Shown in pieces: positions 731 to 62,192 of a stretch of 64,000 nt of DNA. This stretch comes from a virus: positions 1 through 64,000 of IMG/VR virus record IMGVR_UViG_3300017917_004642; one strand, given 5' to 3'. Both the position numbers and the translations under genes were made by a program. The stretch's first letter is position 1; the number at the start of each line of letters is the position of its first letter. The notes beneath the pieces were generated by a model. It ran no database searches, was not told the DNA's origin, and was given only the letters and a program-made list of their open reading frames with translations.

Positions 731-1090
731 ATGGCAAAAGCATACGTAAATAATACGGACTTAATGGCTGCAATCCTACAGTCCAAAGAAAAGGGGCAGC
801 TAACGCCAGAAACAATTAAAATGTTTACCTTAATGATTCAGGGCATTTCTAAGAAAATGGCTTATAAAGACCCTGAAGATAGAGAGGATTGTATGGCTTT
901 TGCAATGGAGGACCTGGTTAAATATTGGAACAGATTCGATCCATCCAAGTCCAATAACCCATTTGCTTACTATACACAGATTGCTAAAAACGGTTTTGCC
1001 AAGGGGTGGAAAAAGATGCATCCGCCAAAAGCACCTAAAACAATTCCATTTTCATATATTACAGGCGACGATAATTCTTATAATGTTTAA
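731..1090 (+). CDS. gp55: T4 gp55-like late-transcription sigma factor
   Basis: YVNN near the N-terminus and EDREDC...YWNRFDPSKSNNPFAYYTQIAKN are typical of the gp55 family. Confidence 0.85.
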   Translation: MAKAYVNNTDLMAAILQSKEKGQLTPETIKMFTLMIQGISKKMAYKDPEDREDCMAFAMEDLVKYWNRFDPSKSNNPFAYYTQIAKNGFAKGWKKMHPPKAPKTIPFSYITGDDNSYNV

Positions 1091-1095
1091 TCTAA

Positions 1096-1581
1096 ATGAC
1101 TGATATAAAAAAGATAAAGCCAAACGGTGATTATAAGTCTGGCCTTTTTGTACCTCAGAATCCAGACAAATACATCGGAGACGTTCACAATATAATTTGC
1201 AGATCCTCTTGGGAATTCAGATTTTGTAAATATTGCGATACGAACCCAAGAATATTAAAGTGGAGTTCGGAACCTGTTGTAATTCCTTATTACAATCCAT
1301 TGGACAAGAAGGAACATAATTATAATGTTGATTTCTATATGAAAGTTATACAGGAGGATGGGCAGGAAGCCGAATGGATAATCGAGATCAAGCCAGAGAA
1401 CCAACATAAAAAACCCATTTATGAAGGTAGCGCAACATTACCTAAGCTAAAATCTTACAACTACAAAATGCAAATTTGGATTACGAATCAATCTAAATTT
1501 AAAGCAGCAAGGGCTTGGGCAGAAGCAAGAGGAATGAAATTTGGTGTGGTTGATGAAAATTTCCTATTTAAAAGCTCGTGA
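1096..1581 (+). CDS. gp4: Head completion nuclease (T4 gp4-like, TnsA-type PD-(D/E)xK)
   Basis: KYIGD..IICRSSWE...KWSSE..IPY....HNYNVDF...IEIKP motifs. Confidence 0.85.
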   Translation: MTDIKKIKPNGDYKSGLFVPQNPDKYIGDVHNIICRSSWEFRFCKYCDTNPRILKWSSEPVVIPYYNPLDKKEHNYNVDFYMKVIQEDGQEAEWIIEIKPENQHKKPIYEGSATLPKLKSYNYKMQIWITNQSKFKAARAWAEARGMKFGVVDENFLFKSS

Positions 1582-2180
1582 AGACTTTTCTTGAACAGCT
1601 TAAACAGCTCAAGGAAAAATCCCAATCTATTTCAGCACTATCGTCTGAAGTGAATGCTTACATATCTAAAAAATATGGCGCTAATAGCAAAGGTGGCGAT
1701 GAATCTTTTAAAGACTTCGTAAGCGGTAAGATATATTTTTCTGAGTATATTACACCAACAAGGCTATCAGATAAGGTAAGATATATCAACAGATATCCAT
1801 TGTTTTTATTCGTTTCTGAGGAAAGGATTGACAATGAAACTATCTGCAAAGTTTTGGATCTAAATGTTATACCTCCTGAATACAGAGGAAATATTTTAAC
1901 TAAGATATTTGACCATTATTTTCAAAAGATCAACGAGAATAGTGAAGATCCAAATTCAGCACAGCAATCTTTAGGTCTAAATGGAATTGCATTACAATCC
2001 CTTTTGAAGGATACTGGATATCAGAGTTCTGTAACGGGATTTAAAAAGAAATATCTTATAAACCCTAAGGTCGTAGACTATAAGGATTGGGTAAGGATAC
2101 CCTACATTTCTATCTCTTCCATACAGGGTCTTCCAGTAGAGCAGATATATACTTCTTATAGATCGAAATTAAACCAATAA
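1578..2180 (+). CDS. DNA end protector protein (T4 gp2-like)
   Basis: GKIYFSEY...INRYPL...LDLNVIPPEYR resembles gp2 motifs; adjacent to gp4; GTG start overlaps the upstream stop. Confidence 0.6.
   Translation: MKTFLEQLKQLKEKSQSISALSSEVNAYISKKYGANSKGGDESFKDFVSGKIYFSEYITPTRLSDKVRYINRYPLFLFVSEERIDNETICKVLDLNVIPPEYRGNILTKIFDHYFQKINENSEDPNSAQQSLGLNGIALQSLLKDTGYQSSVTGFKKKYLINPKVVDYKDWVRIPYISISSIQGLPVEQIYTSYRSKLNQ
2144..2151 (+). promoter_or_regulatory. Putative late promoter GATATATA upstream of the portal genes
   Basis: Recurrent octamer before structural genes. Confidence 0.55.
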
Positions 2181-2213: not shown

Positions 2214-3866
2214 ATGCCAGGATTTGTAGAAAACCCAAACAGCAACCCAATTTTTCAGAGGATTAGAGACTCTGTTAAAAATCTGAGCAATTTCGGTTTG
2301 AGGTATGGAGATATGGTTGTTAAGAACTCGCAAGCAATCGGAACAACAGAAGCTGAGTTTCTAAAAAAAGGTCCGATCGAAGACGAGACAACTTTCTTTT
2401 CTTTAGGAAGACAGGATACAACAACCAGACAATACATTGCATACTTTGATAAAGATTATGCAGGAAAGAGAGATTATCTTAGAAAGTTCTCTTTGAACCC
2501 GGAGATTGAATACATCCTTGATACAATCTGTGACGAATCCATAACTTACGACCCGTTTAACTTTTTTGCATATCCAGCTTTTCTAAATCTTACTGGGCTA
2601 AAACCGAAAGTTGTAGACCGTGTCGATTCTGCCTACAAACAGCTGTATGACATGTTTGGATTCAATGACGACATCAGTGCATGGCAATATTTTAGACAAT
2701 TATTGGTAGATGGATTTATAGCATTCGAGATTGTATACGATGACAAGGGAAAAAATGTGATTGGATTTAAAGAATTGGATGCTACCACATTAATGTCATC
2801 TGTTGAAAAGCAGCCTGATGGTTCTTATCTTAATGTTTGGTACCAATACCCAAAAGATGAGAAGAAGAGAAGAATGCTTTACGACTCACAGATCATTTAC
2901 ATTTCTCACGCAAAAGGAAATTCAGTATCTAGAGTAAGCTATACAGAGCGTTTAATTCGTCCGTATAACGTTCTGAGGATCATCGAATACACAAGAGTAA
3001 TCTGGTCGGTGATGAATGCATCGTTTAGAATGAAAATGACCGTTCCTGTTGGGTCCAGATCACAACAAAAAGCAATGCAAACACTTGGAGAATTGATGAG
3101 CATCTATAAAGAAGATATTCAATTCAATGACGAGAGCGGAGAACTTGCGGTAAATGGACAGCCAAAGATTCAGTTTTATAAAAACTATCTTATGCCCAAG
3201 GGAGTAAATGGGACACCAACCATTGAGCCTTTAAATACCGCTGGACCAAATCTTAACGATCCAGCTCCTTTAGCTTATTTCTTCGATAAATTGGTCCAAG
3301 AATCTAAGGTACCTTTTTCGAGGTTTCAAGGACCAGATGGCGGATCAATAGGAAACTATTCGAATGCTGCTGAAGGACTAGACAAGGAAGAAATAAGATT
3401 TGCTAAGTTCATCATGAGACTTAGATCCAATTTCCAGGATATACTTATAAAGCCTTTGTGGCTTCAACTATGTAAAGATTTTCCAGAACTGGAGAAAGAT
3501 TACATGTTTAAAAGTCAGCTTGGATTAACTTTCATTTCGGATAACCCTTTTAGGGTAAACCAGGAAATCGAAAGCATGAGTAAGAAAAAAGAGTCTATCG
3601 ATGCTCTTTATGGATTACTTGGTGAGGATGGACAACCTTTCTTTTCGTTAGCTTATCTCATCGAAAATTATTTGGGCATGACTGAGGACGATATCCAAGC
3701 TAACAAAGAAGCTAAGCTTAAGAGAGAAAAAGAAAAGCAAAAAGAAGCTAAGAAAGCTCAAGCAGAAGCACCACCTGCAGAAAGTGAAGAAACCTCAACT
3801 AGCACAGAGACTGAAGCACCACCGGCAGAAGAAGCACCACCGGCAGAAGAGGCTACACCGGCTTAA
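2214..3866 (+). CDS. gp20: Portal vertex protein, T4 gp20-like, paralogue 1
   Basis: LNPEIEYILDTICDE, FRQLLVDG, SYTERLIRPYNVLRIIE, NYLMP, YFFDKL..VPFSRF and EEIRFAKFIMRLR follow the gp20 motif order. Confidence 0.9.
   Translation: MPGFVENPNSNPIFQRIRDSVKNLSNFGLRYGDMVVKNSQAIGTTEAEFLKKGPIEDETTFFSLGRQDTTTRQYIAYFDKDYAGKRDYLRKFSLNPEIEYILDTICDESITYDPFNFFAYPAFLNLTGLKPKVVDRVDSAYKQLYDMFGFNDDISAWQYFRQLLVDGFIAFEIVYDDKGKNVIGFKELDATTLMSSVEKQPDGSYLNVWYQYPKDEKKRRMLYDSQIIYISHAKGNSVSRVSYTERLIRPYNVLRIIEYTRVIWSVMNASFRMKMTVPVGSRSQQKAMQTLGELMSIYKEDIQFNDESGELAVNGQPKIQFYKNYLMPKGVNGTPTIEPLNTAGPNLNDPAPLAYFFDKLVQESKVPFSRFQGPDGGSIGNYSNAAEGLDKEEIRFAKFIMRLRSNFQDILIKPLWLQLCKDFPELEKDYMFKSQLGLTFISDNPFRVNQEIESMSKKKESIDALYGLLGEDGQPFFSLAYLIENYLGMTEDDIQANKEAKLKREKEKQKEAKKAQAEAPPAESEETSTSTETEAPPAEEAPPAEEATPA
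3813..3848 (+). repeat. Perfect 18-nt tandem repeat (EAPPAE x2) in the acidic tail of portal 1
   Basis: gaagcaccaccggcagaa twice. Confidence 0.9.
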
Positions 3867-3881
3867 TAAAAAACTAGAGGA

Positions 3882-5474
3882 ATGGCAGGATTTTTAGATA
3901 ACTCAGTAGAAAGAACATTTTTAGGGAATTTATATAAGAACTTAGCTAAGGTTAGCAAGTTCGGTATGCAATATGAGGATATGGTTATTCGTAATTCTCA
4001 AGCAATTGGTGCCACTGAATCAACATTTTTTAATAGCGAGGGAACTGGATTTACCGAAAATAATGCTTTCTTCTGGACTCTAGGATATCAAGACACAAGG
4101 GTTAGAAAATACATTGCATATTTCGACAAGGATTATCTAGGAAAAAGAGACTTCCTGAGAAAATTTGCTTTGAATGGTGAGATTGATTTTATTCTGGATA
4201 CCCTTTCTGATGATGCTGTAAATTACGACGACAAGAATTTCTTTTCTTATCCAAGTTTAGTAAACATAGATCTAAAAGACGAGATAAAAGAAAAGGTAGA
4301 AGAGAACTTTAGAAATCTTTACATGCTATTTGGTTTCCAGCAGAGTATTCTTGCCTGGCAATACTTTAGACAATTTCTTATTGATGGATTTTTAGCTTTT
4401 GAGATCGTTTATTCAACCGACGGTAAAAAGATAGTAGGTTTTAAGGAATTAGATGCTACTTCTTTGCAACCTGCAACAGAGCAAATGCCGAATGGTGAAT
4501 TCCAACAGATCTGGATTCAGTACCCTCAAGATAATAGAATGACCAGAAAACTGAAATCTGAACAAGTTCTGTATCTTTCGTATGCTAAAGGTAACACGGT
4601 ATCTAGAGTAAGCTACACAGAAAGATTAATTAGATCTTATAACATTCTTAGAGTGATGGAAAACACCAGAGTAATCTGGAATGTTATGAATGCTTCTTAC
4701 CGTTTAAAGTTTGTTATCCCTGTTGGAACACAGTCCATGCAAAAGGCAATGCAAACTTTGGGGCAGTTAATGTCTGTGTACAAGGAAGAAATCCAAATCA
4801 ATGATTACTCAGGTGAACTTACAGTAAATGGTACACCTAAGGTTCAGTTTTATAAAAATTACCTTTTCCCTGAAAAAGATGGCGAATCTCCAGACATTAA
4901 CACATTAAACCCGTCTGGACCTGACTTCAACGTTATGGAGAACGTGGTTTATTTTTACAATAAGCTTAAGTTAGATTCAAAATTACCCTATGCAAGATTT
5001 GCATTTAGAGGTGGAACCCCTGCTAATTACCAAATCAGTATTGATCAGCTTGAGAGAGACGAGATTAGATACGAAAAATTTGTAGGCAGACTTAGATCTA
5101 TATTCCAAGAGATAATTGTAAAGCCTTTGTACATCCAAATGTGTTTGGATTTTCCTGAATTGTCTAAGGATAGAACTTTTAAGGCCAATCTTGGTTTGAA
5201 TTTTGTCAAAGAGAATATGTTTGAACAATTGATTCAGCTTTCTAATTACACAAAGAGATCTGATTTTATTACATCAATGGGAGATATGAAGCAGAGAATC
5301 GGTGAGGAAGAAGTTGCTTATTTTGACAAGGAATTCTTGATTAAAAGATGGCTTGGTTTAAGCATGGACGAATACAGGATGAACCAGAAGTACAAAGACG
5401 AAGAAGCAGCTCAGTCGGAAAAGAAGAAAGAAGAAGGAGGAGCAGAAGGAGCAGAGGGAGGATTTACCCTTTAA
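3882..5474 (+). CDS. gp20: Portal vertex protein, T4 gp20-like, paralogue 2
   Basis: Colinear with 2214..3866 (NSQAIG, YIAYFDKDY.GKRD.LRKF, GFKELDAT, SRVSYTERLIR, RDEIRYEKF). Confidence 0.9.
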   Translation: MAGFLDNSVERTFLGNLYKNLAKVSKFGMQYEDMVIRNSQAIGATESTFFNSEGTGFTENNAFFWTLGYQDTRVRKYIAYFDKDYLGKRDFLRKFALNGEIDFILDTLSDDAVNYDDKNFFSYPSLVNIDLKDEIKEKVEENFRNLYMLFGFQQSILAWQYFRQFLIDGFLAFEIVYSTDGKKIVGFKELDATSLQPATEQMPNGEFQQIWIQYPQDNRMTRKLKSEQVLYLSYAKGNTVSRVSYTERLIRSYNILRVMENTRVIWNVMNASYRLKFVIPVGTQSMQKAMQTLGQLMSVYKEEIQINDYSGELTVNGTPKVQFYKNYLFPEKDGESPDINTLNPSGPDFNVMENVVYFYNKLKLDSKLPYARFAFRGGTPANYQISIDQLERDEIRYEKFVGRLRSIFQEIIVKPLYIQMCLDFPELSKDRTFKANLGLNFVKENMFEQLIQLSNYTKRSDFITSMGDMKQRIGEEEVAYFDKEFLIKRWLGLSMDEYRMNQKYKDEEAAQSEKKKEEGGAEGAEGGFTL

Positions 5475-5580: not shown

Positions 5581-6927
5581 ATGATCAAAGAACTCAGAAC
5601 ATTAGCGGAGGTTGAACTCTTAACCGGTAACGGTTCTCAAAAAGAGAAGCAAAGACTCATTTCGGAGAACCTGTCCGAAGAAATGCTTTACATAATCGAC
5701 ATCTGCTTCAATCCTTTCGTTACCACGAAATTGCATAAACTGGAGATTGAAAAAACTAGAGGAATTATACCACCCTCAGCATTTCCAGGATTCCAAGCTT
5801 TCAAGGATCTTGTTGAAGATCTCAAAAAGGCACCAGCTGCAAATGATTCTCTTAGACAAAGAGCTAACTTCCTGATTAACTCTTGCCTCGTCGAAGATCC
5901 AAAAGAGGATCTTTTGTTACGTGATATCCTGATGAAAATTCTTACAAAAAGAATGAATATTGGGATTGGTGCTAAGCTTATCAATAAAGCAGTTGGAAGC
6001 GAATTAATTCCGGATCCTTCAGTAATGCTTGCTTCTGATGACCAAAAAGAAGTTTCTGGCTGGAGCAAAATTTATTGCGAAGAGAAATATGATGGTGTTC
6101 GAGTAATTGCAGTTGGAAACAGAGAAAATGGATTTCAATTTTACACCAGAGCATTTAACGAGCTTGACAAGACTAAGCTTTCTGGTATAGAATCTGAGCT
6201 CGTTAAGATGCTACATGCTGCTAACGTGATTTCAGATGTTTTCTTTGACGGAGAACTCACAGATCTCAATAGAAAATCTGTTTCGGGAAAAGTAACACAG
6301 ATCCTTAAAGGGACTGCTTCAAACGACATCGACAAAGAATTCATCTTCAATGTTTTTGATGTCGAAAAATCAGAAGTTTTGAAGACTGGAAAGGGAACCA
6401 CACCCTTCATTAAAAGAAGACAAGAGCTCGAATTCCTCACCGGTTTTTTGCCGGAACAAAGCCCGGTTAAATTAGCTCGCCAGTGGGTAGTGGATTCAAT
6501 GGAGAAAACCCACGAGATATATGGACTGATAGTATCGATGGGAGGGGAAGGCGTTATTCTAAAACCTGAGGATCACGTCTATGAATGTAAACGCAGTAAA
6601 AAATGGATTAAATTAAAGCAGATCCAGGACTGTGATTTGGAGATCACTGGGTGGTATCCAGGTGAAGGTAAAAGAGAAGGCTTTATAGGCGGATTCATCT
6701 GTACGGATTCATCTAAAACTTTGAATGTAAAAATTGGGTCTGGGTTTACTGATAAGGATCTTCAAGAACTTAGTAAAGATCCAGACACACTGATTGGTAA
6801 AATCATAGCTGTACAGTACAATGAGCCAATCACTGATAAGTTTGGAGGCAGGAGCTTGTTTCTACCACGTTTTATTGAGGTTCGACACGATAAGAATGAA
6901 GCAGACGACCTTTCCAAAAAGTTCTAA
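5581..6927 (+). CDS. lig: ATP-dependent DNA ligase (T4 gp30-like)
   Basis: EEKYDGVR (motif I), FDGEL, EGVILK, KRSKKWIKLK, GSGFTD, SLFLPRF...R.DK. Confidence 0.95.
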   Translation: MIKELRTLAEVELLTGNGSQKEKQRLISENLSEEMLYIIDICFNPFVTTKLHKLEIEKTRGIIPPSAFPGFQAFKDLVEDLKKAPAANDSLRQRANFLINSCLVEDPKEDLLLRDILMKILTKRMNIGIGAKLINKAVGSELIPDPSVMLASDDQKEVSGWSKIYCEEKYDGVRVIAVGNRENGFQFYTRAFNELDKTKLSGIESELVKMLHAANVISDVFFDGELTDLNRKSVSGKVTQILKGTASNDIDKEFIFNVFDVEKSEVLKTGKGTTPFIKRRQELEFLTGFLPEQSPVKLARQWVVDSMEKTHEIYGLIVSMGGEGVILKPEDHVYECKRSKKWIKLKQIQDCDLEITGWYPGEGKREGFIGGFICTDSSKTLNVKIGSGFTDKDLQELSKDPDTLIGKIIAVQYNEPITDKFGGRSLFLPRFIEVRHDKNEADDLSKKF

Positions 6928-17426: not shown

Positions 17427-19457
17427 ATGACTGAAGGAATGGAAAAATCCACGTCTATGAACGAAAATCTGGTTTTTATTCTAGAGAAGCAATCCAATAA
17501 TTTGTCTGCTTCAAAAGAAAAGACTAACGACGGAGACAGCTATGTTCTTCAGGGTATTGCCGCTCAATTTGGCAAAGAGAACAACAACAACAGAATCTAC
17601 GAGGAAGGTGAGTATTTACCACACCTAGATTATTTGAACGACAAGATTTCTCAAAAAAGATTACTTGGCGAGTTGGATCACCCTGAAAAATTTGATGTAT
17701 CGCTAAAAAACATCTCACACGTTATCGAGGAGCTTTCTTACGATAAAGATGGAAGAGTCCTTAAGATAAAAGTTAGATTGTTGGATACACCAGCTGGACA
17801 AATTGCAAAAAAATTAGTTGATGCTGGAATTCCTCTTTCTATTTCATCAAGAGCAGCAGGAAATGTTGGCCCTGATAAAAAAGTACAGATCAAAAAAATC
17901 TTTACTTATGATTTAGTTGCTGATCCTGGATTTCAGGATGCACAACTTGAACGCGTTTACGAAAGCGCAGGTTTTACGTTTTCTGAATTCTCAGAAAGAA
18001 CCAAAAATTCTATTGTTAATTCTTTAGTGTGCATGAACGAATCATTAGGTATTAAAAATGATTCTGGATTGATGATATATAATGTCGACAATAACGAAGA
18101 ATTCGAAAAAATCTTTAAGCAAGAAAAAAATAAATCCGATATTATGGAGTCCAATAAAAAAGAATTTGTAACTAGCGAAGAGCTCAATAGTTATTCGATT
18201 TTCCTTAAGAAAAAGATGGATGAACTTGAGTCTCAGATCTCTGAGATGAAAAAAACACCCGCAGCAGTTTCTGAAAACAAAACCGAAGAAGTTTCTGAAC
18301 TCGAAGAAAGAGTTGCTCGTTTAGAAAAGTACTCCGAGTACCTAGCAGAAAATTTGGAAAGCGCAATTAAGTATGGCGAATACCTCGCAGAAAATCTTGA
18401 TAGCAGCATTACTTACAGTAAGTATTTGGCTGAAAACCTAGACAAAACTATTTCATACTCGAAATACATTGCAGAAAACGTAGATAAGTCTATTTCTTAT
18501 TCTGAGTATGTAGCAGAGAATGTAGATAAAGCAATCGATTACTCTAAGTATTTGGCTGAGAAAGTAGATGACAATATCCAGTACACAGAATACGTTGCTG
18601 AAAATTTGGATAAGACCATTTCTTATTCTGAATACTTAGCAGAAAACGTAGATAAGTCTATCTCTTATTCTGAGTATCTTGCAGAAAACCTTGACAAAGG
18701 TATTGCTTATTCTGAGTACATTGCAGAAAAACTAGATCAAGGTATTTCTTACACTGAGTATCTTGCAGAAAATGTAAACAAGACCATTTCTTATTCTGAG
18801 TATCTTGCAGAAAGCTTAAATAAAGGAATTGCTTATTCCGATTATTTGGCAGAAAAATTAAATGGCACGATTTCTAATGCCGAATCTCTTTCAGAAGGTG
18901 AAAAGACTACTAAAGTCAATTCACTTAACGAAAGCGCAAAAGAACAAGCAGAAATCGCTTCTAAAACTGAATTAGTAGAGTCTGGATTTGCTGGTGATTA
19001 TGGATCACTTTCAAATCAACTAGACGCTCTGATTGAATCAGTCCAAACACAAAAGACTGACGAATTAATACAAAAGGCTGAAAGCAAATTCCAGCCAGCT
19101 GCTCAAACACAAAAAGCGGAAGAGACTTTAAATGAGAACGAAGCATCAGCTAAAGTTCAGTCATCAGGTCACAAGTTTATTGATGAAATGCCCGAAGATT
19201 ACGTTCAGATTTGGGAATCTCTAAATGAAGGTCACAAGCAATCAGTTATTGCACAATCAACTTTCTACAATTTAGAAACACCTTATCAGATCAAAAATTT
19301 CTGGTCAACTCGTCAGCTTGGTGCTAAACCTGTTGGTCTTCAGAAACTCACTGAAAGTCAAGAAACAACAACCACTTCAACCACTTCAGCTCAACCTTAT
19401 AACTCAGATTATCTGGCATGGGTGGCTAAGTCATTAGAAGGAAAATTCAAAAACTAA
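17427..19457 (+). CDS. gp21: Prohead protease (T4 gp21-like) fused to a scaffold/core domain
   Basis: NNNNRIY, LGELDHP, SHVI, LLDTPAG, ISSRAAG, TYDLVADPGF in the N-terminal ~180 aa; long helical C-terminus; directly upstream of the major capsid gene. Confidence 0.92.
   Translation: MTEGMEKSTSMNENLVFILEKQSNNLSASKEKTNDGDSYVLQGIAAQFGKENNNNRIYEEGEYLPHLDYLNDKISQKRLLGELDHPEKFDVSLKNISHVIEELSYDKDGRVLKIKVRLLDTPAGQIAKKLVDAGIPLSISSRAAGNVGPDKKVQIKKIFTYDLVADPGFQDAQLERVYESAGFTFSEFSERTKNSIVNSLVCMNESLGIKNDSGLMIYNVDNNEEFEKIFKQEKNKSDIMESNKKEFVTSEELNSYSIFLKKKMDELESQISEMKKTPAAVSENKTEEVSELEERVARLEKYSEYLAENLESAIKYGEYLAENLDSSITYSKYLAENLDKTISYSKYIAENVDKSISYSEYVAENVDKAIDYSKYLAEKVDDNIQYTEYVAENLDKTISYSEYLAENVDKSISYSEYLAENLDKGIAYSEYIAEKLDQGISYTEYLAENVNKTISYSEYLAESLNKGIAYSDYLAEKLNGTISNAESLSEGEKTTKVNSLNESAKEQAEIASKTELVESGFAGDYGSLSNQLDALIESVQTQKTDELIQKAESKFQPAAQTQKAEETLNENEASAKVQSSGHKFIDEMPEDYVQIWESLNEGHKQSVIAQSTFYNLETPYQIKNFWSTRQLGAKPVGLQKLTESQETTTTSTTSAQPYNSDYLAWVAKSLEGKFKN
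18327..18872 (+). repeat. 13 tandem 42-nt (14-aa) coding repeats, consensus SYSEYLAENLDKxI
   Basis: Counted in the translation from KYSEYLAENLESAI to AYSDYLAEKLNGTI. Confidence 0.95.
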
Positions 19458-19471
19458 AAAAACATAAAAAA

Positions 19472-21190
19472 ATGAAACTCATCAACGAAGCAGAAATCTT
19501 CGATACCTGGGCGCCTATCATTGAGCAAAAAGCCGGTATTGTTGATTCAGAAAAAAAACAGTGGCTTTCTAAATACTGCCACTACCACTCATTAAACGAA
19601 TCAGCTGGTGCTTACCAGTCTTTGAACGTTGTTAACGGTATGGGTCCCGTTGCACCTCCAGCATTCCCAGCTTCTACGCAAGCAGGTTCTGTAGGCGGTT
19701 ATTCACCTAACCAAGGATTCTACAGCCAGTCATGGCAAGGATCTGGCGATAAATTCCCTTCACTTCTTCCTTTGGCTATTCAGGTAGCTGCGAAGACTGT
19801 AGGTTTTGATATCGTTCCAGTTATCCCTATGTCAGGTCCTTCAGGCGTATTGTCATACCTTGACTACGTTTACGCTGGTGGTAAAGTTAGCCCAGCAAGT
19901 GTTGGTACAACCTCTGCAGATGCTTTGGCTGCTGCTCCAACCATGATCAAAGTACAGATCACTTCTTATGCTGCAGGTTATCCTGATTCATTCGTAGTTG
20001 GTACTACTTACTACATCACTAACGCTACATCAGCAAGTGCTTACTTGACTACCAAATTTGTTGGTCTTTCAAGAATCGATGGTTATCCTATCTTCGAAAT
20101 CACCGACGTAACTGCAGGTGAGTCAGTAGCTTCTGTAATTAACGGTGGTGCTACTAAAATTGGTACAGCTCCTGACGGTTCACAAGCTGGTACTACTACT
20201 GCTTCTGCATCTTTGGTAAAAGCTCTTGAAGATCATATCCAAGGTTTCTCTGGTGCTGGTTTCTATGACAACCAAAACTGGCAAGGTCCTTTCGTAGATG
20301 GTACCAAGACTTACAACCCAATGTTGAGAAGCGTAGGAGAAGAAAACTACTACAACTTGATGGGTCTTTCGACTTTCACCAAGTTCGTAGAAGCTGATAC
20401 TTTCCAAGTAGCTGCTTCAGTTACAACTGAGCAAATCCAAGATCTTAATAAGCAATTCGGTATCGACGTAATTTCTATGATCGAGAACGCATTGGTTAAT
20501 GAGGTTTCACAAGCTATTAACAAGCACATCCTTGCTAGAGCTTTTGCTCTTGGTTGGTCTAACAACAACGCTTTCTTCACAACTGAAGGCCAAAACCTTA
20601 ACCTTAACCTTGTAATTGGTGGTACTGCTGGTTCTTACACCATCCCATCTTACGTAGGTAAAGACGATACCGCCATCACAATGGCTGGTACTGCTGGTCC
20701 TGCTAGCACAAACTACGAGAACTTGTCAACTTTACAAAGAAGATTGTTCTCTAGAATTCTTGCTGCAGCTAACGTAGTAGCTAACAGAGGTAGAAGAGGT
20801 CCTGCTAACTTCATCGTAACTAACGCTAACTTGGCGTCTTCGATGCAAGATATCAGCCAATTCACTTTCGCTCCATTCTCAAACACCCTTACCCAAAACA
20901 ACGGAACTCTTTATCCAGTAGGTTCTCTTGCAGGTATGACAGTGTATGTAGATCAGAACATGAAATACAATGACACTAGAATCCTTATCGGTAGAAAAGG
21001 TGGTGATGATGAGCCAGGTTTGAAATTCATGCCTTACATGATGGCTGAGTCAATCCAGACTATTTCTGAAGGAACTATGTCTCCTAAGATCGCAGTTAAG
21101 TCACGTTATGCTTTAGTAGAAGCTGGTTTCCATCCAGAAACTATGTATTTCTGCTTCAACGTTAACGTTCCAACTGGCGGTTTGAACTAA
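19472..21190 (+). CDS. gp23: Major capsid protein (T4 gp23-like)
   Basis: WAPII, VIPMSGPSG, TTEQIQDL, RRGPANFIV, VGSLAGMTVYVD, FMPY, PKIAVKSRYAL; codon bias of a highly expressed gene. Confidence 0.95.
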   Translation: MKLINEAEIFDTWAPIIEQKAGIVDSEKKQWLSKYCHYHSLNESAGAYQSLNVVNGMGPVAPPAFPASTQAGSVGGYSPNQGFYSQSWQGSGDKFPSLLPLAIQVAAKTVGFDIVPVIPMSGPSGVLSYLDYVYAGGKVSPASVGTTSADALAAAPTMIKVQITSYAAGYPDSFVVGTTYYITNATSASAYLTTKFVGLSRIDGYPIFEITDVTAGESVASVINGGATKIGTAPDGSQAGTTTASASLVKALEDHIQGFSGAGFYDNQNWQGPFVDGTKTYNPMLRSVGEENYYNLMGLSTFTKFVEADTFQVAASVTTEQIQDLNKQFGIDVISMIENALVNEVSQAINKHILARAFALGWSNNNAFFTTEGQNLNLNLVIGGTAGSYTIPSYVGKDDTAITMAGTAGPASTNYENLSTLQRRLFSRILAAANVVANRGRRGPANFIVTNANLASSMQDISQFTFAPFSNTLTQNNGTLYPVGSLAGMTVYVDQNMKYNDTRILIGRKGGDDEPGLKFMPYMMAESIQTISEGTMSPKIAVKSRYALVEAGFHPETMYFCFNVNVPTGGLN

Positions 21191-21303: not shown

Positions 21304-22425
21304 ATGAGCAAAATTTTTAGATTTGAGCAATATTTAGAAGAAAGGGATTATTTTTCACCTGTCTCTGAAGATTTGTACTCAGAAATATCTGATTGGGTTA
21401 CTAATGAATCCATTAACGAAGGACTGCTGGATACAATTAAAAACAAGCTATCAAAAAATCTATTGGGTGATTTTTCTAAGGTTTCCGCAATAGATGCAAT
21501 CAGAAAGGGCAATCTTGAAATTGAAAAGGATCTTGTTTTGAAGAAATATGATTTCAACGATAAGCTTGATGCTTTGGAATTGAAACTAGCTAAGGTTACA
21601 AGAAGCGGAAATAGATCTGCAATCTTGGCAGTACAGAACGAAATTGATAAGAAAAGGGCAGAACAAAAAGCTTACATAAAAAGTAAAAAAGCTCAAATTG
21701 AAAACGGATTGTTATTACTGTCTAAAGCTATCGATAAGAATAAGAGAAGAAAAGAATATTATGAAGCTGGTAAAGCAGAGGATGAATTAGCATTTGCCAA
21801 TTTCGAATATGATATCGCAAAGAAAAAATCAAGCTCACAGAAAGAGGTTGATAAATTGAAAAAATCTTTGGATAAAGCTAAAGCAGATGCTGAAGAACTT
21901 ATTAAAAGATTCAAGGATTCTGTTTCTGTTTCTAATGATAATCCAGTTGAAATAGAAAGCAAAGACCTTATAAACCCAGATAAGATCAAGAAAAAGCTTT
22001 CTGCCAAGAAATTCAGTGACCTTATAGAGATTAAAGAAAAAACAAAGCAAAACGTTAACAAGAAAAAAGAAGACCTTGTTAAGTACCTTGAAGATCTAGC
22101 TAATACCATCGAGAAGCATAGTAAAGCTATGGTCAATGTTAAAAGCTCGGTTTTAGCATCAGCTGAAAAAAAATCTACCGATTTAGCAAATGAAATTGAT
22201 GCTCAAATTAATCTTCTTAATCTTTATAATAATATAGGTAATTCCCAAACCGAGATCGAAAAGGTATTAAAGGATCCTTCCGATTTAAAATCTTTGTTTT
22301 CAAAAATCAGTAATGCAATTAAAGATTCTAAGGATGATTCCTCTGGGATTTCAAAAGAAATTCTTGTTGTTTTTTCTGATCCGACTGCTAAAAAATTGAA
22401 ACAAGCAATTAAAAAAATTAAATAA
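21304..22425 (+). CDS. Coiled-coil hypothetical, probable internal head protein
   Basis: KIFRFEQYLEE and SINE motifs; Lys/Glu-rich helices; GATATATA at 21263. Confidence 0.7.
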   Translation: MSKIFRFEQYLEERDYFSPVSEDLYSEISDWVTNESINEGLLDTIKNKLSKNLLGDFSKVSAIDAIRKGNLEIEKDLVLKKYDFNDKLDALELKLAKVTRSGNRSAILAVQNEIDKKRAEQKAYIKSKKAQIENGLLLLSKAIDKNKRRKEYYEAGKAEDELAFANFEYDIAKKKSSSQKEVDKLKKSLDKAKADAEELIKRFKDSVSVSNDNPVEIESKDLINPDKIKKKLSAKKFSDLIEIKEKTKQNVNKKKEDLVKYLEDLANTIEKHSKAMVNVKSSVLASAEKKSTDLANEIDAQINLLNLYNNIGNSQTEIEKVLKDPSDLKSLFSKISNAIKDSKDDSSGISKEILVVFSDPTAKKLKQAIKKIK

Positions 22426-22426
22426 G

Positions 22427-23317
22427 ATGCTGTATAACTTTAAACGGTGGCAAAATGAAATTGCCTTAAACGAATCTAAATCCATGGATAGCATCATGAA
22501 TTGGCTTAGCTCCAATTTTGGCGGTTCTGTGGCAAAGATAGATTCCCTACTCGGTAACATTCTTTCTATTGAAGAAGATTACATGAAAGAATGGAATGAT
22601 ATACAAACAGAAATAGACTCTTTGGAAGTTCAAAAAGCACAGATCAAAAGTGATCCGGCTGAAGCTAAAAAATTGGAAAGAATGATTTCCAGAAGCCACA
22701 AGCTTCTTGACGCATTATCCAAGAAAAGAAGAGCTAAGATTGATGACGTTGAGAAAAAGGTGGAAGCTGCTACAGAAGGCAAACAAAGACTGATCGCTTA
22801 TTGGAACATGAAGAAATCTGAGGCTGAATCTGATGTTGCTGAAAAGTTGTATAAGATTGCTAAAAATCTTACCGATTCTTCGATTGCTGATGAACTATAC
22901 GACAAGTATAAAGATGCTGCATTAATGGCAAAAAAGAAAGATGAACAATTCAGATCTAAATTTGGTGAACTTAAACTTTCTTCAGCAAGTACTTCACTCG
23001 ACTCTGATGAAAAGCCATCTAAAACTAGTAGTTTTTCACTAGACCCTATCCTTGCAATGAATGCTGTTCAATTTACCAAGTATGTTCAAGGATTAGAAAA
23101 AGGTGCGGTTAAAGAGCTAATCAAATTTATGATGACCGAAAGAAACGAAAGGTATGCAACCATTGACACAGAAAGGGATAGGCTTGAAGCTCAAGCTGAT
23201 AAAAAAGGACTTTCTGCATCCGATGTTAAATCAAGTCTGAAAGATTTAAGAGAAACCCTGATGGAGCAGGTCAGAGATTTAAGAACGAAAATAACCATCG
23301 CAAGAAGATATGCCTAA
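22427..23317 (+). CDS. Coiled-coil hypothetical, probable paralogue of 21304..22425
   Basis: ALNESKSMDSIMNWLSSNFGG resembles INEGLLDTIKNKLSKNLLG. Confidence 0.7.
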   Translation: MLYNFKRWQNEIALNESKSMDSIMNWLSSNFGGSVAKIDSLLGNILSIEEDYMKEWNDIQTEIDSLEVQKAQIKSDPAEAKKLERMISRSHKLLDALSKKRRAKIDDVEKKVEAATEGKQRLIAYWNMKKSEAESDVAEKLYKIAKNLTDSSIADELYDKYKDAALMAKKKDEQFRSKFGELKLSSASTSLDSDEKPSKTSSFSLDPILAMNAVQFTKYVQGLEKGAVKELIKFMMTERNERYATIDTERDRLEAQADKKGLSASDVKSSLKDLRETLMEQVRDLRTKITIARRYA

Positions 23318-44312: not shown

Positions 44313-45473
44313 ATGAACACCTTTCAAGAAGAAAACTCAATTAGCGGAGTATTTAACTGGGATATACCCAGTACGCTAACTGTGAACAAAAAAATTAAAA
44401 CTAGCGATAAATCTAAAGTTTATTGTCACGATGACTATGCTGAAAATCTATATCAGCAAATCCTGGGCAATATCAAAGATGTACAGTCTTCTAAAGACCT
44501 AGTTCAAGGAGAGCTTTACAGTTGCAAGATTATCTCAATTAACGAACAATATGCATTGGCACAAACCGATGCTGGACAAACTGTTTACATTGATCTTAAA
44601 AAAGAATACAAAGATGCAAATCGTTTGGGAATCACCGCAATGGATTTTGTTATTGGTGGTAAGATTGAGGCATTAGTTAGAAATTCTACAGGTACCTATT
44701 ATGGTTCTGTAATTGAATGTTACATCCAGAATCTTAAATCTGAATTCTTTGAACAGATTAAAAAAGAATCTTCTGCATACGAAGCTGTTGTTGAGTCGGT
44801 AAACAAGGGTGGATATATGGTGGACGTACAGGGAATCAAATGCTTCTTACCAGGATCACTTGCTGCCGCTAACAAGATTACTGATTTTGATGCTTTCATC
44901 GGCAAAAAATTCTATGTTATGATTGACGGTTATGTACCTGCCAAAGACATTTTCGTTGTTTCTTATAAAAAGTACTTAACCAGGATCATGGACCAAAAGA
45001 TCCAAGAGCTTGACCTAACTAAAAAATACAAAGGTCACGTAACTGGAACATCTAACTTTGGTGTATTTGTAGAATGGGAAGACATCTACACTGGCTTGAT
45101 CCACAAGACTGAATTTGAAAATCAAGTTGTTTCTGGTTTCTATCCTGGTGACGAGATTGAATTCTACATCAAAGAAGTTAAAGAAGACAATAGATTGACC
45201 CTGACGTTCGGTCAGCCAGTCGAAAAAACCATGAGACTTTACGATCTGAAGAAACTAGCAGATGAGGGAAAGGGTCTGGAGGTTTATGCTTCTATTAAGC
45301 ACAAGAGAAAAAATGGAGCTCTAGTTGAACTCATCGGTGAGAACCTGATGGCTTTAATTCCTCAGGAGAAACTAGAAAAGAGCAACAAAAACATTAAAAC
45401 TGGCGATTCCCTGCTTGTTAAAATCTACCAGGTGGATCCAGTTTTAGGAAAAATATTTGCAAGACCAGTATAA
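44313..45473 (+). CDS. rpsA: Ribosomal protein S1-like multi-S1-domain protein
   Basis: About 4 S1/OB domains: VESVNKGGYMVDVQGIKCFLPGS, GHVTGTSNFGVFVE...GLIHKTE, GALVEL...ALIP. Confidence 0.8.
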   Translation: MNTFQEENSISGVFNWDIPSTLTVNKKIKTSDKSKVYCHDDYAENLYQQILGNIKDVQSSKDLVQGELYSCKIISINEQYALAQTDAGQTVYIDLKKEYKDANRLGITAMDFVIGGKIEALVRNSTGTYYGSVIECYIQNLKSEFFEQIKKESSAYEAVVESVNKGGYMVDVQGIKCFLPGSLAAANKITDFDAFIGKKFYVMIDGYVPAKDIFVVSYKKYLTRIMDQKIQELDLTKKYKGHVTGTSNFGVFVEWEDIYTGLIHKTEFENQVVSGFYPGDEIEFYIKEVKEDNRLTLTFGQPVEKTMRLYDLKKLADEGKGLEVYASIKHKRKNGALVELIGENLMALIPQEKLEKSNKNIKTGDSLLVKIYQVDPVLGKIFARPV

Positions 45474-59100: not shown

Positions 59101-59835
59101 GTTGATGATTTCTCAACCTTCCCTATTGATCCAAACAGTGGTACACAAAGTCCATTAAAATTAAGTGTTGATGCAGATCTAAATGTATTCGTTGCTGGTG
59201 GAAATTCTGGAATAACCGGTCCTACAGGTCTTCCTTACCCTGCTGGAAATCTTTCCTTTGTTTCACTGCTTGAAAGTTTTAAACCACCAGTTGGTGTTGA
59301 TATGGGTGATATCATATCTAGAGCGGGATCTGGTGCATGGACTTGGGTAGATGTTCATAATTCAGATTCAGATCTGAATGTACCTATGCTCTCGACAGTT
59401 TTCTTTAGCAACTACAATTCACAAATTTTTGGTAAAAATTCAAATCGATGGGTGTTAACCGATGCAAGATTGGGTGAAGTAATACTGGATGTCAAACAAA
59501 TCCCATATTTCATATACACGTTTGTTAAGTCCGGATACTACTCAATACAGAACACAGTGGAAGATGCTGCAGGCAACGTTTACGAGATTGCTAAACCAGC
59601 TTTCATAAAAGTTGTCAATCAATCAATTGCAAGAGCAGATGACCCAAATCCATTCTTGGTAAATTCAGCAGATTACGGGTATGTACAAGAAAAAAGAGGA
59701 TTTGAAAACGAAGCTGAAAAACTGGACAAAGACATGCTTGAGCAGCAGATTGAGATTAGACTTAAAAACATTCCTCCTTTTGGATCTGGATTAATTATCA
59801 AAGACGATCCAGATGCGACATTTAGAGGCGATTAA
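56191..59835 (+). CDS. Beta-propeller-containing tail/receptor-binding protein
   Basis: Reg_prop-like blades (NSSLNSNTVYSISFDENGHYWLGTEAGL; NSTLPDDLVISI); GATAAATA at 56178. Confidence 0.7.
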   Translation: MANSLLYINQGALDSSENVWCVGRDLTVYDGQSWTYFNYLNSIVPNNSPYFLDTRSISIDSDDTKWIGCAVSSGLSQDLIFYAEGPQAATGSSWTINDFNLSGANWEVPTIYASPYGDEILAFISPLNGGGGTGATGNVGVTGGYLWSYNKISSEWKEVSPGYVWPHIYEIKAKGKDGINWDYYLATTDGVQIIPNGILDTSVLQDGSKFIPNLKKINGYNSSLNSNTVYSISFDENGHYWLGTEAGLTYWDGSKYYNWVTPGSESVQSVVARPNGHVFFSEGNPFETPSGTNGFYHFNGDTFTNYNTSNSTLPDDLVISILLVPEKTSKGSLTLYPNDLWIVAGNYVVLFDYVIPHVYGSSKYEGTTGWNFIDYTPNATGATTDAANLPKTERFNWVYPSWQGYENFELSNNHPGMDPRNLFLDTDFKAIADGRAGNQDYWNWGQVIPYEQQVEAGLIPDYTWINGITGASQITISSVSRYKNLNVLSGYSNNPYTNFGPSSNTENEFIVANPNPTNGTSGTQNFGFVTFYSDGGQVQGTIPFRGYNTRVLSAKPSYDNSSLVVLGSYSGYVEGGKFVWGSEYPTAANMTVTGTTGPIGGPIGFSNIATPGITASFDYPWILNGATGATSGVYIPQPSVLTSTIGYFLAEVDFEIGDETSYGGIDFSTETTSSKFCLKNFRTFPGANSSYDPAIHPAGTLPTQIGNSDLSISQNSIRFTGNITGGISTLKNDYENTNDLPNSPEFIFSSFSNSSYVSSGFVIDVSPDFFLKNGSSVGMTGNGSLDTIASLPNGQTFLLTGTSTDNLSYENLNVPHSSGGAMYPWFVLSDENNRGITGSFFKNSSSGDANYQSWNNTVTSFSSTSNFYSAMIYTGNGSIESYNGSSLTVGGASGAVNSAIVSITPGGKVSLASSYEILPSDYEFAYNATISSVQGVRANDSYYLAVNYQHNPGVTGNGNIIIKRSVSGTHVDDFSTFPIDPNSGTQSPLKLSVDADLNVFVAGGNSGITGPTGLPYPAGNLSFVSLLESFKPPVGVDMGDIISRAGSGAWTWVDVHNSDSDLNVPMLSTVFFSNYNSQIFGKNSNRWVLTDARLGEVILDVKQIPYFIYTFVKSGYYSIQNTVEDAAGNVYEIAKPAFIKVVNQSIARADDPNPFLVNSADYGYVQEKRGFENEAEKLDKDMLEQQIEIRLKNIPPFGSGLIIKDDPDATFRGD

Positions 59836-60257
59836 TTTTTTGGTTTAGCATTTCCAGTACCGCCCTGTGCTTTACTGTGCTTCCATTCCTCATATCTTTT
59901 TACGATTTCTTTCAGAATTTTAGATCTGACGATATCTTCTTCACCGAATTGAAATTCTCCAATGTTTTTAACCCCTCTTACAAGTTCCATAAAGAAAGGT
60001 AAAGCAACCTTCTCATAAGAAATGTCGTGCTGGGTTACATCTCCCGCAATCACCATCTTTGAATTTTTACCCAACCGAGAAGTGTAAAGCATTAACTGTT
60101 TCATATCACAATTCTGAGATTCGTCAAGAATCATAATGCAATTTTTACTTAATAGACCATGTGTGGCAAAGTAATTGTGATTATCTTTTACGTTTACGGA
60201 AAAGAATGGTACATTTTCATACTCACTCTCAATCCTAGTTATTTTTTTTACTCTCAT
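59832..60257 (-). CDS. phoH: Split-intein C-fragment (39 aa) fused to the PhoH C-terminal extein
   Basis: MRVKKI...VNVKDNHNYFATHGLLSKN|CIMILDESQN...SRLGKNSKMVIAGDVTQHD...DIVRS. Confidence 0.92.
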   Translation of the reverse strand: MRVKKITRIESEYENVPFFSVNVKDNHNYFATHGLLSKNCIMILDESQNCDMKQLMLYTSRLGKNSKMVIAGDVTQHDISYEKVALPFFMELVRGVKNIGEFQFGEEDIVRSKILKEIVKRYEEWKHSKAQGGTGNAKPKN

Positions 60258-61501
60258 TTATATAAATTATAATTTGTTAGATCCAGACTATCATCGACCA
60301 AACCAAAAAACCACCCGTCTATTTCTTCTTTTGTCTCGAAGCATTTATCTTTATATTTTCTGTGTGGCAAAGGTTTGAAATTTGATAATTTTTCTTTGCA
60401 GAATTTTTTAAAGTTACCCGCAGTAACCCATTTTTCACCATTTGGGAAATGTATGATTATCTTTTTTGACATCGGATTCTTATCACCCGATATTTTCTCG
60501 CCGTTTTTATAATTTGGGTTATTTATTCCCATCCGGTATTTTGCCATCCATTCATTAAATTCTTTTTCTCCTAATTGAACACGGTTTTTATGAAATGATG
60601 AATTATCCCCCCTTCTTACATCTTCCATATATTTTTCTCTTTCTTCCGGAGGTAAAGAATTTAATTTTTTTGAAAATGGATTATTTACAGAAGAACTGTT
60701 ATTGAATATCCATTCTTTTTTTTCCTCTTCATTTAATCCTGATAAAAATTTGTAATATGCTGAATTATCACCTGTCCTATCCGTTTTTTTAAAACAGCTT
60801 ATACACATTGAAGATTTATTACCTTTTCTTCCTGAACAAATTTTGCATATCGTTTTCCCTTTCCAATGTGGACTATTTTCTTTTAATATATATTTGGATT
60901 TCCATAATTCCAATTCTTCTTCACTTTTATTTCTAAAATGATTAGATTTTTTAACCGATATTGAAAATTGTAATCTGAATGAATCGTCACATTCCGCCCA
61001 GAATTTTTTTAATCCATTTGATATTTTAGTCTTTATTTCCTCTATTTCATTTTCTTTCTTATTTTCGAAAATGTTTTTCCCATACATTGGGTTCCTTTCG
61101 CCACTTAAGATTGGGTTCCTAACCCCTGGGATTGTTAAATTGCAAAGACTTCCTTCCCCTATTTCATCAGATATCTTTGTTCTAGTACCAATCTGTTCGC
61201 AAACCTTATATTCTATTTCAAGAGCTTTATCCTCCGTTAATCCATCTTTTATTTTTATAATGAATTTATCCTTGAAATCGTTTACGGTTACATCCGATAA
61301 AATTTTACTTATTATTCTATTTTTCAGCGGGTTATTTTTTATAGGTTTAAGATGATCGTATAATCTATTACCTTTACCCTTACCGACATAAAATGGCTGA
61401 AATTCCAGTGTAAATCTATCACCATCAATAATTAATTCCCTAGATTCTGGTTTTCTAGGATCTAAATATACGTAAGTGTAAAATGAATTATCACATTTCA
61501 T
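60254..61501 (-). mobile_element. Free-standing GIY-YIG homing endonuclease with NUMOD3-like repeats, inside the fractured phoH
   Basis: FYTYVYLDPR...FYVGKGKGNRLYDH, E..ALEIE, LCNLT; GERNPMYGK and GDKNPMSK repeats; more AT-rich than the flanks. Confidence 0.88.
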
Positions 61502-62192
61502 AGTATATTATATCATCTTCTTCCGTAAGATCTTTTGCCTCTACAATACCCCTATTTGATGTGTAAAATTTATGAGAATCTGTTACGTTTATGCTTGAAC
61601 CATTTTCCAATTCTACACAAATGTATTTATTTGTTAGTGACATTGAAATTGCATCTAATTCTTTTTCTTCTAATTCCCCTTTCGGGTTTGAAGTTATAAC
61701 AATATGATATATCCCATTTGAAGCATCCTCAAAAATTTGGTCCACCGTAATGTAACCTTTGTTCGTAAGTATTTTTTCACCCGAAATTAAACATTCATCA
61801 AACGTTGCACCTCTCATATATGCCAATGGTCTAAATTCGATTACTTTATCGTTTATTAATTGGGTTAGAACATCTTTCTTTATGATCTTTTCCATAGTGA
61901 TCAAAAAGCTTTCCATGTAGGGTCCAATCTTTTCTCCAACGTCTCCTGGTAAACTTCCAAGTTTTTCCCCCGATTCCTGGATTGGCTTGGTAAAGATTAT
62001 TTTTTCGATGACTCCTTTTTGTAAAAGTCTAAGAGCTGTATAGCAGGCAGAAAATGTTTTAGAAGATCCAGCAGGTCCCCAACAAAAGGTAATCGTATTG
62101 TTGAAGATTGTTTCTGAATACTCTTTTTGTTTTGGTGATAATGAAATGTCTAAAAATGAGCTTGCGGTTAACTTGTTTTTTCCTACTGGCAT
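61491..62192 (-). CDS. phoH: PhoH N-terminal extein (133 aa) fused to a split-intein N-fragment (100 aa)
   Basis: GPAGSSKT, LGSLPGD, PLAYMRGATFDE|CLISGEKILT...VTDSHKFYT..RG.VEAKDL. Confidence 0.92.
   Translation of the reverse strand: MPVGKNKLTASSFLDISLSPKQKEYSETIFNNTITFCWGPAGSSKTFSACYTALRLLQKGVIEKIIFTKPIQESGEKLGSLPGDVGEKIGPYMESFLITMEKIIKKDVLTQLINDKVIEFRPLAYMRGATFDECLISGEKILTNKGYITVDQIFEDASNGIYHIVITSNPKGELEEKELDAISMSLTNKYICVELENGSSINVTDSHKFYTSNRGIVEAKDLTEEDDIIYYEM

Follow-up and report, generated by a model that had tools for sequence, protein, structure and literature searches.

No machine of tailed phages and herpesviruses is more conserved than the portal, which models of head assembly, packaging and ejection, to our knowledge, all treat as a homo-dodecamer. 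The closest well-described relative of the proteins reported here is gp20 of phage T4 (PF07230; PDB 3JA7, 6UZC, 9MKB and 9LU6/9LU7), which shares with them the family, the wing-stem-clip-crown build and the T4-like late and head gene neighbourhood; in T4, as in all deposited phages that we checked, one gene is present, and its product forms a homo-dodecamer (PMC4493910). We analyzed the first 64 kb (hereafter the window) of the 83,576-base IMG/VR record IMGVR_UViG_3300017917_004642, for which CheckV gives a completeness of 30%, and in this window two adjacent genes of the gp20 type, here called portal paralogues A and B, are found in place of one. Their products are 49% identical, and the inner clip loop and the tunnel loop differ between the two copies. 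A and B are gp20-family portals that depart from the family pattern of one portal gene per genome, from which a homo-oligomer is built.

Among deposited sequences the closest is the portal of the uncultured phage LR756500, which falls in the same broad gp20 subgroup and is 43-44% identical to A and to B over its full length; unlike the double-portal clade described below, this phage has one portal and one tail-tube gene. The duplication of a virion block with retention of both copies, each in a fixed place, is familiar from gp23 and gp24 of T4, where gp24 forms pentamers of its own; that pair concerns another protein and makes no mixed capsomers, and no full-length gp23 paralogue was found here. 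In the very large myophage G, the adjacent gp179 and gp180 are tail-tube candidates, both reported as detected by proteomics (PMC8570332; bioRxiv 10.1101/2024.12.16.628780). They are tandem, ring-forming paralogues of the DNA conduit and parallel the tail-tube pair of the present clade, belonging to the tube and not to the portal, and the preprint on phage G describes a single, lambda-like portal, gp14 (bioRxiv 10.1101/2024.12.16.628780). No account of two portal genes or of a heteromeric portal in a tailed phage was found in full-text searches of the literature, of which supplements or subscription journals might hold one, and a review of 224 jumbo phages, in its accessible part, names the gp20 orthologue without duplication (PMC7824862).

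Two portal genes of the gp20 type

The original prediction, made from the sequence of the window, had described two adjacent open reading frames (ORFs) of 550 and 530 amino acids as intact and colinear gp20 paralogues, and this description was borne out. The coordinates are exact, both ORFs are complete, and BLASTP aligns residues 1-501 of A with residues 1-505 of B (250/507 identities, 49%; 72% positives; 8 gaps; E = 0.0), the only exception to colinearity being the low-complexity C-terminal tails. The prediction had also named, as an outcome that would refute it, that neither protein matches gp20 profiles; both do, with nearly the full profile of PF07230 (Portal_T4) covered by A (204.2 bits, E 4e-60, profile positions 7-429 of 433) and by B (194.6 bits, E 3.4e-57, positions 9-433 of 433) against a gathering threshold of 22.9 bits, and with phrog_213, "portal protein", matched at E 3e-59 and E 6e-54, respectively. 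In an all-against-all protein search, A and B are by far the strongest paralogue pair of the record.

AlphaFold2 models built on alignments of 96 (A) and 101 (B) sequences reached a pLDDT of 79.6 and 77.7, have a common order of helices and strands, and both contain the wing, stem, clip, tunnel loop and crown of gp20. The top Foldseek matches of either model are T4 gp20 chains (9MKB, 9LU7, 6UZC and 3JA7), followed by other phage portals; the best of them, 9mkb, was matched at E 7e-20 by A and E 4e-19 by B, with about 18-20% identity to T4 gp20 over the structural alignment. When PDB sequences were searched with phmmer, nothing beyond T4-type portals was returned. Judged by these profile and fold matches, together with the constraint reported below, A and B are T4 gp20-type portal subunits, both of them real and functional.

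The two genes are tightly coupled, with a gap of 15 nt in the window that carries a Shine-Dalgarno-like motif (Table 1), and when this spacer was read directly no space for a promoter or a terminator was seen. A and B lie in one frame in the window; a readthrough A-B fusion was ruled out by the two consecutive stops, and in the syntenic relative G001 the two genes are not in one frame.

Divergence between A and B is distributed unevenly along the protein. With domain limits carried over from T4 gp20 (PMC4493910) via a HMMER alignment, A-B identity is 75% in stem helix a5, 62% in the clip and 55-58% in the wing, 39% in the N-terminal region and 33% in stem helix a7, and falls to 27% in the tunnel loop, 20% in the crown and 4% in the C-tail. 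In every domain, A is as well conserved within its own clade as B is within its own, and only 7 columns, mostly conservative, are fixed differently between the two clades. Sixteen columns differ in conserved charge class, and one conserved swap is reciprocal, A having D19 and K178 and B having K19 and D180. The clip tip, by which T4 gp20 binds the terminase (PMC4493910), hardly differs between A and B.

Compared with 15 outgroup sequences, A and B are equally similar to them (mean BLOSUM scores of 2.04 vs. 2.07). The sole significantly asymmetric segment is A 322-342, the inner clip loop (-1.74 vs. a null 5% value of -1.28), in which B keeps the outgroup pattern (P-x-K-D/G-G-E) and A shows a derived one (P-S/K-G-V-N-G-T). 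The tunnel loop of A is acidic (RFxGPDG or RFDREDR) and resembles the RFD of the outgroups, that of B has a conserved Arg (RFAFRGG or RFSSRFG); in this direction, with A the more outgroup-like copy, the highest score of any alignment window was 1.00 vs. a null 95% value of 1.40, the tunnel loop being below significance.

Recurrence, origin and constraint of the pair

An IMG/VR scan with A gave 146 confirmed stretches, the best 80 of which were kept as 78 loci from 71 dataset numbers, as counted from their names. An A-type ORF is directly followed by a B-type ORF in 76 of these 78 loci, always in the same order and on the same strand, and in the other two (L019 and L065) the contig ends inside copy A. 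Orthologues in the related loci are 53-92% identical to A and 51-96% identical to B, the gap between the genes ranges from 2 to 23 nt (median 6; 70 related loci), and both genes are complete and uninterrupted in 65 loci plus the window. Two full-length portal genes are likewise carried by the window's record, by G001 and by two further genomes, G002 and G003. The claim that the tandem is not an assembly duplicate is upheld by this recurrence in independent loci, and the claimed divergence at the DNA level by the longest exact match between A and B, which is 12-23 nt within any of 52 genomes.

Lesions were seen in 2 of the 78 loci: in L043 the A gene has an in-frame TAG (6601-6603), where the residue is a variable Lys/Asn, and in L006 the B gene lacks 1 nt (around 8250) relative to the 95% identical L008. 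Since these are single changes in conserved genes whose close relatives are intact, they are compatible with error or recent variation, and may represent sequencing errors or rare or recent defective variants.

The source record is a fragment of a jumbo phage: its syntenic relatives measure 230 kb (G001, CheckV 85% complete) and 219 kb (79% complete), and family contigs reach 267-328 kb. The family is large, with 2118 homologues at E <= 1e-50 on contigs of up to 328 kb from many freshwater-type datasets, and these homologues, which include many intermediate sequences of 65-72% identity, are annotated in the source solely as "hypothetical protein". Megablast of the 3.3-kb region against deposited phages gave no match, and no isolate belonging to the double-portal clade was found among the deposited phages. 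The nearest relatives in culture have their hosts among Bacteroidota and Sphingomonas, and the habitat of origin is a pond or fresh water. A search of sequencing runs listed one DNA run, which may be the source, and two more of that study, with no RNA run.

The premise that tailed phages normally have one portal gene agrees with the deposited records, since none of 1082 with a gp20-like match has two full copies. A second gp20-like place occurs in two of them, LR756501 and LR756503 (both 735,411 bases, same coordinates), and in LR756501 (735 kb) it amounts to a 22-bit fragment beside one portal. One portal is present in the whole 462-kb record of LR756500, one in each of the deposited isolates PAU and PTm1, and one in the metagenome contig L097, where 2.9 kb upstream and 4 kb downstream could be read; the contig L199, from a metagenome-assembled genome and the one match, a distant one (37%), of a scan of genome contigs, has a single copy with no second one within 4 kb downstream, and it offers no hint of a host.

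The phylogeny was computed with IQ-TREE (LG+G4, quick search) on 130 rows comprising 25 A, 30 B, 71 representatives and 4 named outgroups; the representatives came from a search of 1.84 billion cluster representatives, 40 of 170 rows were removed as near-identical (>=96%), and Lak phage portals were excluded, having no long open frame under table 11. SH-aLRT support was 99 for the A clade, which includes one representative (P0003), 98 for the B clade and 98 for A+B, and the A and B subtrees have the same shape and mirror each other. A tree forcing together the A and B of a shallow subclade, as expected for independent duplications or conversion, was 41 lnL units worse (p-AU 0.026), this group having been named after the tree was seen. 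Within-genome identity between A and B is constant at 46.7-52.8% over 52 distinct genome pairs, the window included, and the longest exact nucleotide match within one genome is only 12-23 nt over the same pairs; gene conversion between the copies was therefore ruled out. No lineage with loss of A or B appears in the tree. On the evidence of these trees and identities, A and B trace back to a single tandem duplication in the ancestor of a large clade of uncultured jumbo myophages, followed by parallel divergence.

Selection was estimated from Nei-Gojobori dN/dS values for 2145 orthologous pairs. Synonymous sites are saturated nearly throughout, even between the window and its closest relatives (dN 0.03-0.04), and the usable set consists of 27 pairs with 0.05 < dS < 1 in both genes, which are close relatives and not mutually independent; median omega in these pairs was 0.028 for A and 0.014 for B. 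The dN values of A and B against the window are nearly equal, from 0.044/0.040 through 0.106/0.107 and 0.371/0.371 up to 0.411/0.423. As estimated from these substitution rates, both copies are under strong purifying selection and neither is decaying. Phylogeny and dN/dS had been put forward as checks in the original prediction, with neutral evolution of one copy as part of an outcome against it, and they return a pair retained across a deep clade and two copies of which neither evolves neutrally (omega of about 0.03 and 0.01).

One mixed portal ring or two rings

We tentatively propose, as the likeliest of the readings although it is slightly less probable than not, that A and B are expressed together and assemble with each other into a single portal ring that contains both. 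A stricter form, an obligate hetero-dodecamer in which A and B alternate with true six-fold symmetry, seems possible, and we advance it more cautiously. In the mixed ring, A and B would come from a single late transcription unit and be translated at about the same level, and the two subunits would join in a single ring, in the simplest form an alternating (AB)6 arrangement that is pseudo-12-fold and truly 6-fold. The almost identical clip and stem of both subunits would face the single terminase and the neck, and the inward, DNA-facing parts, i.e., tunnel loop, inner clip loop, crown and C-terminal tail, would be specific to each paralogue.

A portal needs only 12 copies per virion, and dosage is therefore an implausible reason for keeping two genes. 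Paralogues of homomeric ring proteins usually co-assemble, and in CCT, the alpha and beta rings of the proteasome, MCM2-7 and the V-ATPase c-ring a duplicated ring subunit led to co-assembly and mutual dependence; these are cellular systems, and by analogy a similar course may have been taken here. With A and B present together, and with wing and stem conserved, mixing would be the default outcome. The sequence evidence favours co-assembly over two separate rings, given the coupling of the genes, the near-identical clip and stem, the symmetric constraint, and the single terminase, capsid protein and protease. The original prediction had offered a hetero-oligomeric portal (for example an alternating 6+6 ring matching the six-fold tail), a second special vertex, or distinct packaging and ejection roles; its interpretation is thus supported in part, the facts it builds on being confirmed and these mechanisms being conjectural.

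The argument from single partner proteins draws on G001, which has one terminase large subunit (by PHROGs), one full-length capsid protein and one protease; a search of genomes G000-G003 with PF17289 (Terminase_6C) gave no match. The protease has no paralogue, and the capsid protein no full-length paralogue, in either the record or G001. A 1220-aa ORF located in G001 between the terminase and the tail-tube pair is presumed, by position only, to encode the sheath, and it has no paralogue in that genome.

The tail-tube gene also forms a tandem pair in G001 (21836-22390 and 22406-22987; locus L100:1836-2987), with copies that are 52% identical and match phrog_32623 and phrog_45. The terminase and the two tube genes lie upstream in this syntenic genome, and the position of the tube pair, read in the relatives, is upstream of where the window's record starts. 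Two tube genes occur also in G002 (93464-94626) and G003 (101493-102649), hence in all three double-portal genomes checked, and LR756500 and LR756501, the outgroups with a single portal, carry a single tube gene apiece; the duplications of portal and tube thus co-occur. Two adjacent tube copies are present in 78 of 80 IMG/VR tube loci, the other two ending right after the first copy, and in the tube tree the upstream copies group with an SH-aLRT of 90 and the downstream copies weakly, with 25. Under the stricter reading of an alternating ring, the tube pair would hint at a DNA conduit rebuilt from paralogue pairs all the way from portal to tube.

The best surviving alternative, which we nevertheless consider unlikely, is that A and B build two separate homo-dodecamers, serving a second special vertex, separate packaging and exit portals, or two subtypes of virion; both rings would bind one and the same terminase and neck, and the channel loops and the crown would set them apart. 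Several observations weigh on this side and against a mixed ring. Contact between A and B is presumed, and two homo-dodecamers would fit the sequence pattern equally well if both have to engage the same terminase and neck. Paralogue-specific sequence that is conserved inside each clade is found in the tunnel loop, the inner clip loop, the crown and the C-tails, and the differences in the first two could equally mean different jobs. With just 7 strictly class-specific sites, no strong signature of a re-engineered interface is apparent. The swap of D19/K178 in A for K19/D180 in B, if these positions pair across subunits, would favour A-A and B-B over A-B contacts and could insulate homomers. The duplicated tail tube could point to two alternative, matched sets of conduit parts instead of mixed rings, and a precedent for separate exit and packaging portals is described in the unrelated Mimivirus (PMC2430901). 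The single-copy relatives, moreover, are those with readable context, and the nearest outside representatives (P0004, P0005 and P0006) are not among them: P0004, a sister taxon of P0005 (56% identical), gave two loci in IMG/VR, both ending within the portal, and two in metagenomes, one of which is L097.

Two rings are in turn disfavoured by the adjacency and tight coupling of the genes, whose proteins would be made at one time and place, and by the conserved wing and stem, with which mixing would have to be actively prevented. The single terminase, capsid protein and protease, and the presumed sheath ORF without a paralogue, speak in the same direction. If the two rings served evasion of defences or bet-hedging, fast diversifying evolution would be predicted, in contrast to the observed omega of 0.01-0.03. 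We know of no tailed phage with two portal vertices. Head assembly is moreover described as nucleated on one portal (PMC4493910). A complex prediction with A(20-505) and B(20-510) gave a score of 0.02 and no answer, and speaks neither for nor against binding.

Less probable still is that one paralogue is the structural portal and the other was re-purposed, for instance as an assembly initiator or ring chaperone, as an extra stacked ring, or in an anti-host role. Portal proteins can hold second functions, as described for T7 gp8, which binds and inhibits RelA and SpoT (bioRxiv 10.64898/2026.01.27.700999), and the departure of the inner clip loop of A from the outgroup pattern that B keeps, the sole significant asymmetry, would suit such a change. 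Constraint is, however, symmetric in every domain, and neither copy is closer to the outgroups than the other; dN values match in all comparisons, and neither copy has the relaxed or shifted constraint that release from portal duty should bring. The complete wing, stem, clip and crown are retained in both, together with the clip tip that binds terminase in T4.

A last reading, in which the duplication is redundant, in decay or produced by the assembly, finds a foothold in the one-copy lesions of 2 of the 78 loci (A in L043, B in L006), but each is a single change with intact close relatives, and the tandem in 76 of 78 independent contigs, the strong purifying selection and the want of any lineage with a lost copy effectively refute it.

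Surroundings of the pair and wider meaning

The surroundings of A and B are a distant T4-like late and head module (Table 1). Upstream, in the same orientation, lie a late sigma factor and a head-completion protein, which we take to be T4 gp4-like. BLASTP of the 200-aa ORF that follows gave no match in G001, where the head-completion gene ends at 35405 and portal A starts at 35507, about 100 nt apart and without this ORF between them. Downstream of B, an AT-rich gap of 106 nt precedes a DNA ligase, a clamp loader and other replication genes. The head genes resume with the prohead protease; beyond its protease domain it has a long C-terminal stretch, perhaps a fused scaffold or core protein, and the neighbouring gene of Tenacibaculum phage PTm1 carries the annotation "prohead core scaffolding protein and protease". 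Beyond the capsid gene the window contains baseplate and tail genes.

Table 1. Position of the portal pair and of other features in the window
Feature	Position	Strand	Remarks
Late sigma factor, T4 gp55-like	731-1090	+	phrog_234, E 3.6e-16; upstream of A
Head-completion ("head closure") protein, TnsA-like nuclease fold	1096-1581	+	phrog_218, E 2e-46; PF08722, E 5e-19
200-aa ORF	1578-2180	+	Directly upstream of A; no Pfam or PHROG match
Portal paralogue A	2214-3866	+	550 aa, T4 gp20 type; acidic Pro/Ala/Glu-rich C-terminal tail
A residue D19 (charge swap)	2268-2270	+	
A residue K178 (charge swap)	2745-2747	+	
A-B spacer	3867-3881	+	15 nt; second in-frame TAA; Shine-Dalgarno-like AGAGGA 3 nt ahead of the B start ATG
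Portal paralogue B	3882-5474	+	530 aa, T4 gp20 type
B residue K19 (charge swap)	3936-3938	+	
B residue D180 (charge swap)	4419-4421	+	
Prohead protease	17427-19457	+	676 aa; phrog_207, E 5e-39; PF03420; protease domain is the first ~220 aa
Major capsid protein, gp23 type	19472-21190	+	PF07068, E 6e-37; phrog_138
386-aa protein with S1 RNA-binding domain	44313-45473	+	PF00575, E 1.5e-17
PhoH-like gene, two parts	59832-62192	-	Both parts in the same frame
PhoH, C part	59832-60257	-	
415-aa ORF between the PhoH parts	60254-61501		Weak GIY-YIG endonuclease match
PhoH, N part	61491-62192	-	Weak intein-splicing match at its end

Other features of the record were recorded in passing. The S1 RNA-binding domain of the 386-aa protein is clear, and its place amid the baseplate and tail block is unusual. 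The PhoH-like gene is split in the window by the 415-aa ORF and is uninterrupted in G001 (92053-92757); the split looks like a mobile insertion, possibly an intein or a homing-endonuclease remnant. A further pair of paralogues in tandem, with 31% identity across about 340 aa, lies in the record outside the window (74586-76061 and 76063-77628, + strand), and its counterparts in G001 have weak matches to tail-fibre PHROGs.

A clade with two diverged and equally constrained portal genes is a natural exception to the homo-dodecamer rule, and a heteromeric portal, if shown, would be new in kind. An alternating ring, if true, would be the first tailed-virus portal made from two gene products; six of the tunnel loops in its head-side channel would be acidic and the other six Arg-bearing, and the crown would be of two kinds. 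In T4 the step from 12 to 6 is described as lying between gp13 (12 copies) and gp14 (6 copies) (PMC12929587); in an alternating ring it would shift into the portal itself. In a mixed ring the channel loops, the crown and the N-terminal whiskers would come in two flavours at fixed positions, so that the symmetry mismatch between the 12-fold portal and the 5-fold capsid, the 5-fold motor and the 6-fold neck would become directly testable, as would the question of which loops grip the DNA. If two rings are formed instead, the clade would provide the first case of two portal complexes in a tailed phage. In both cases, annotation pipelines, portal phylogenies and marker counts should not presume one portal gene per genome.

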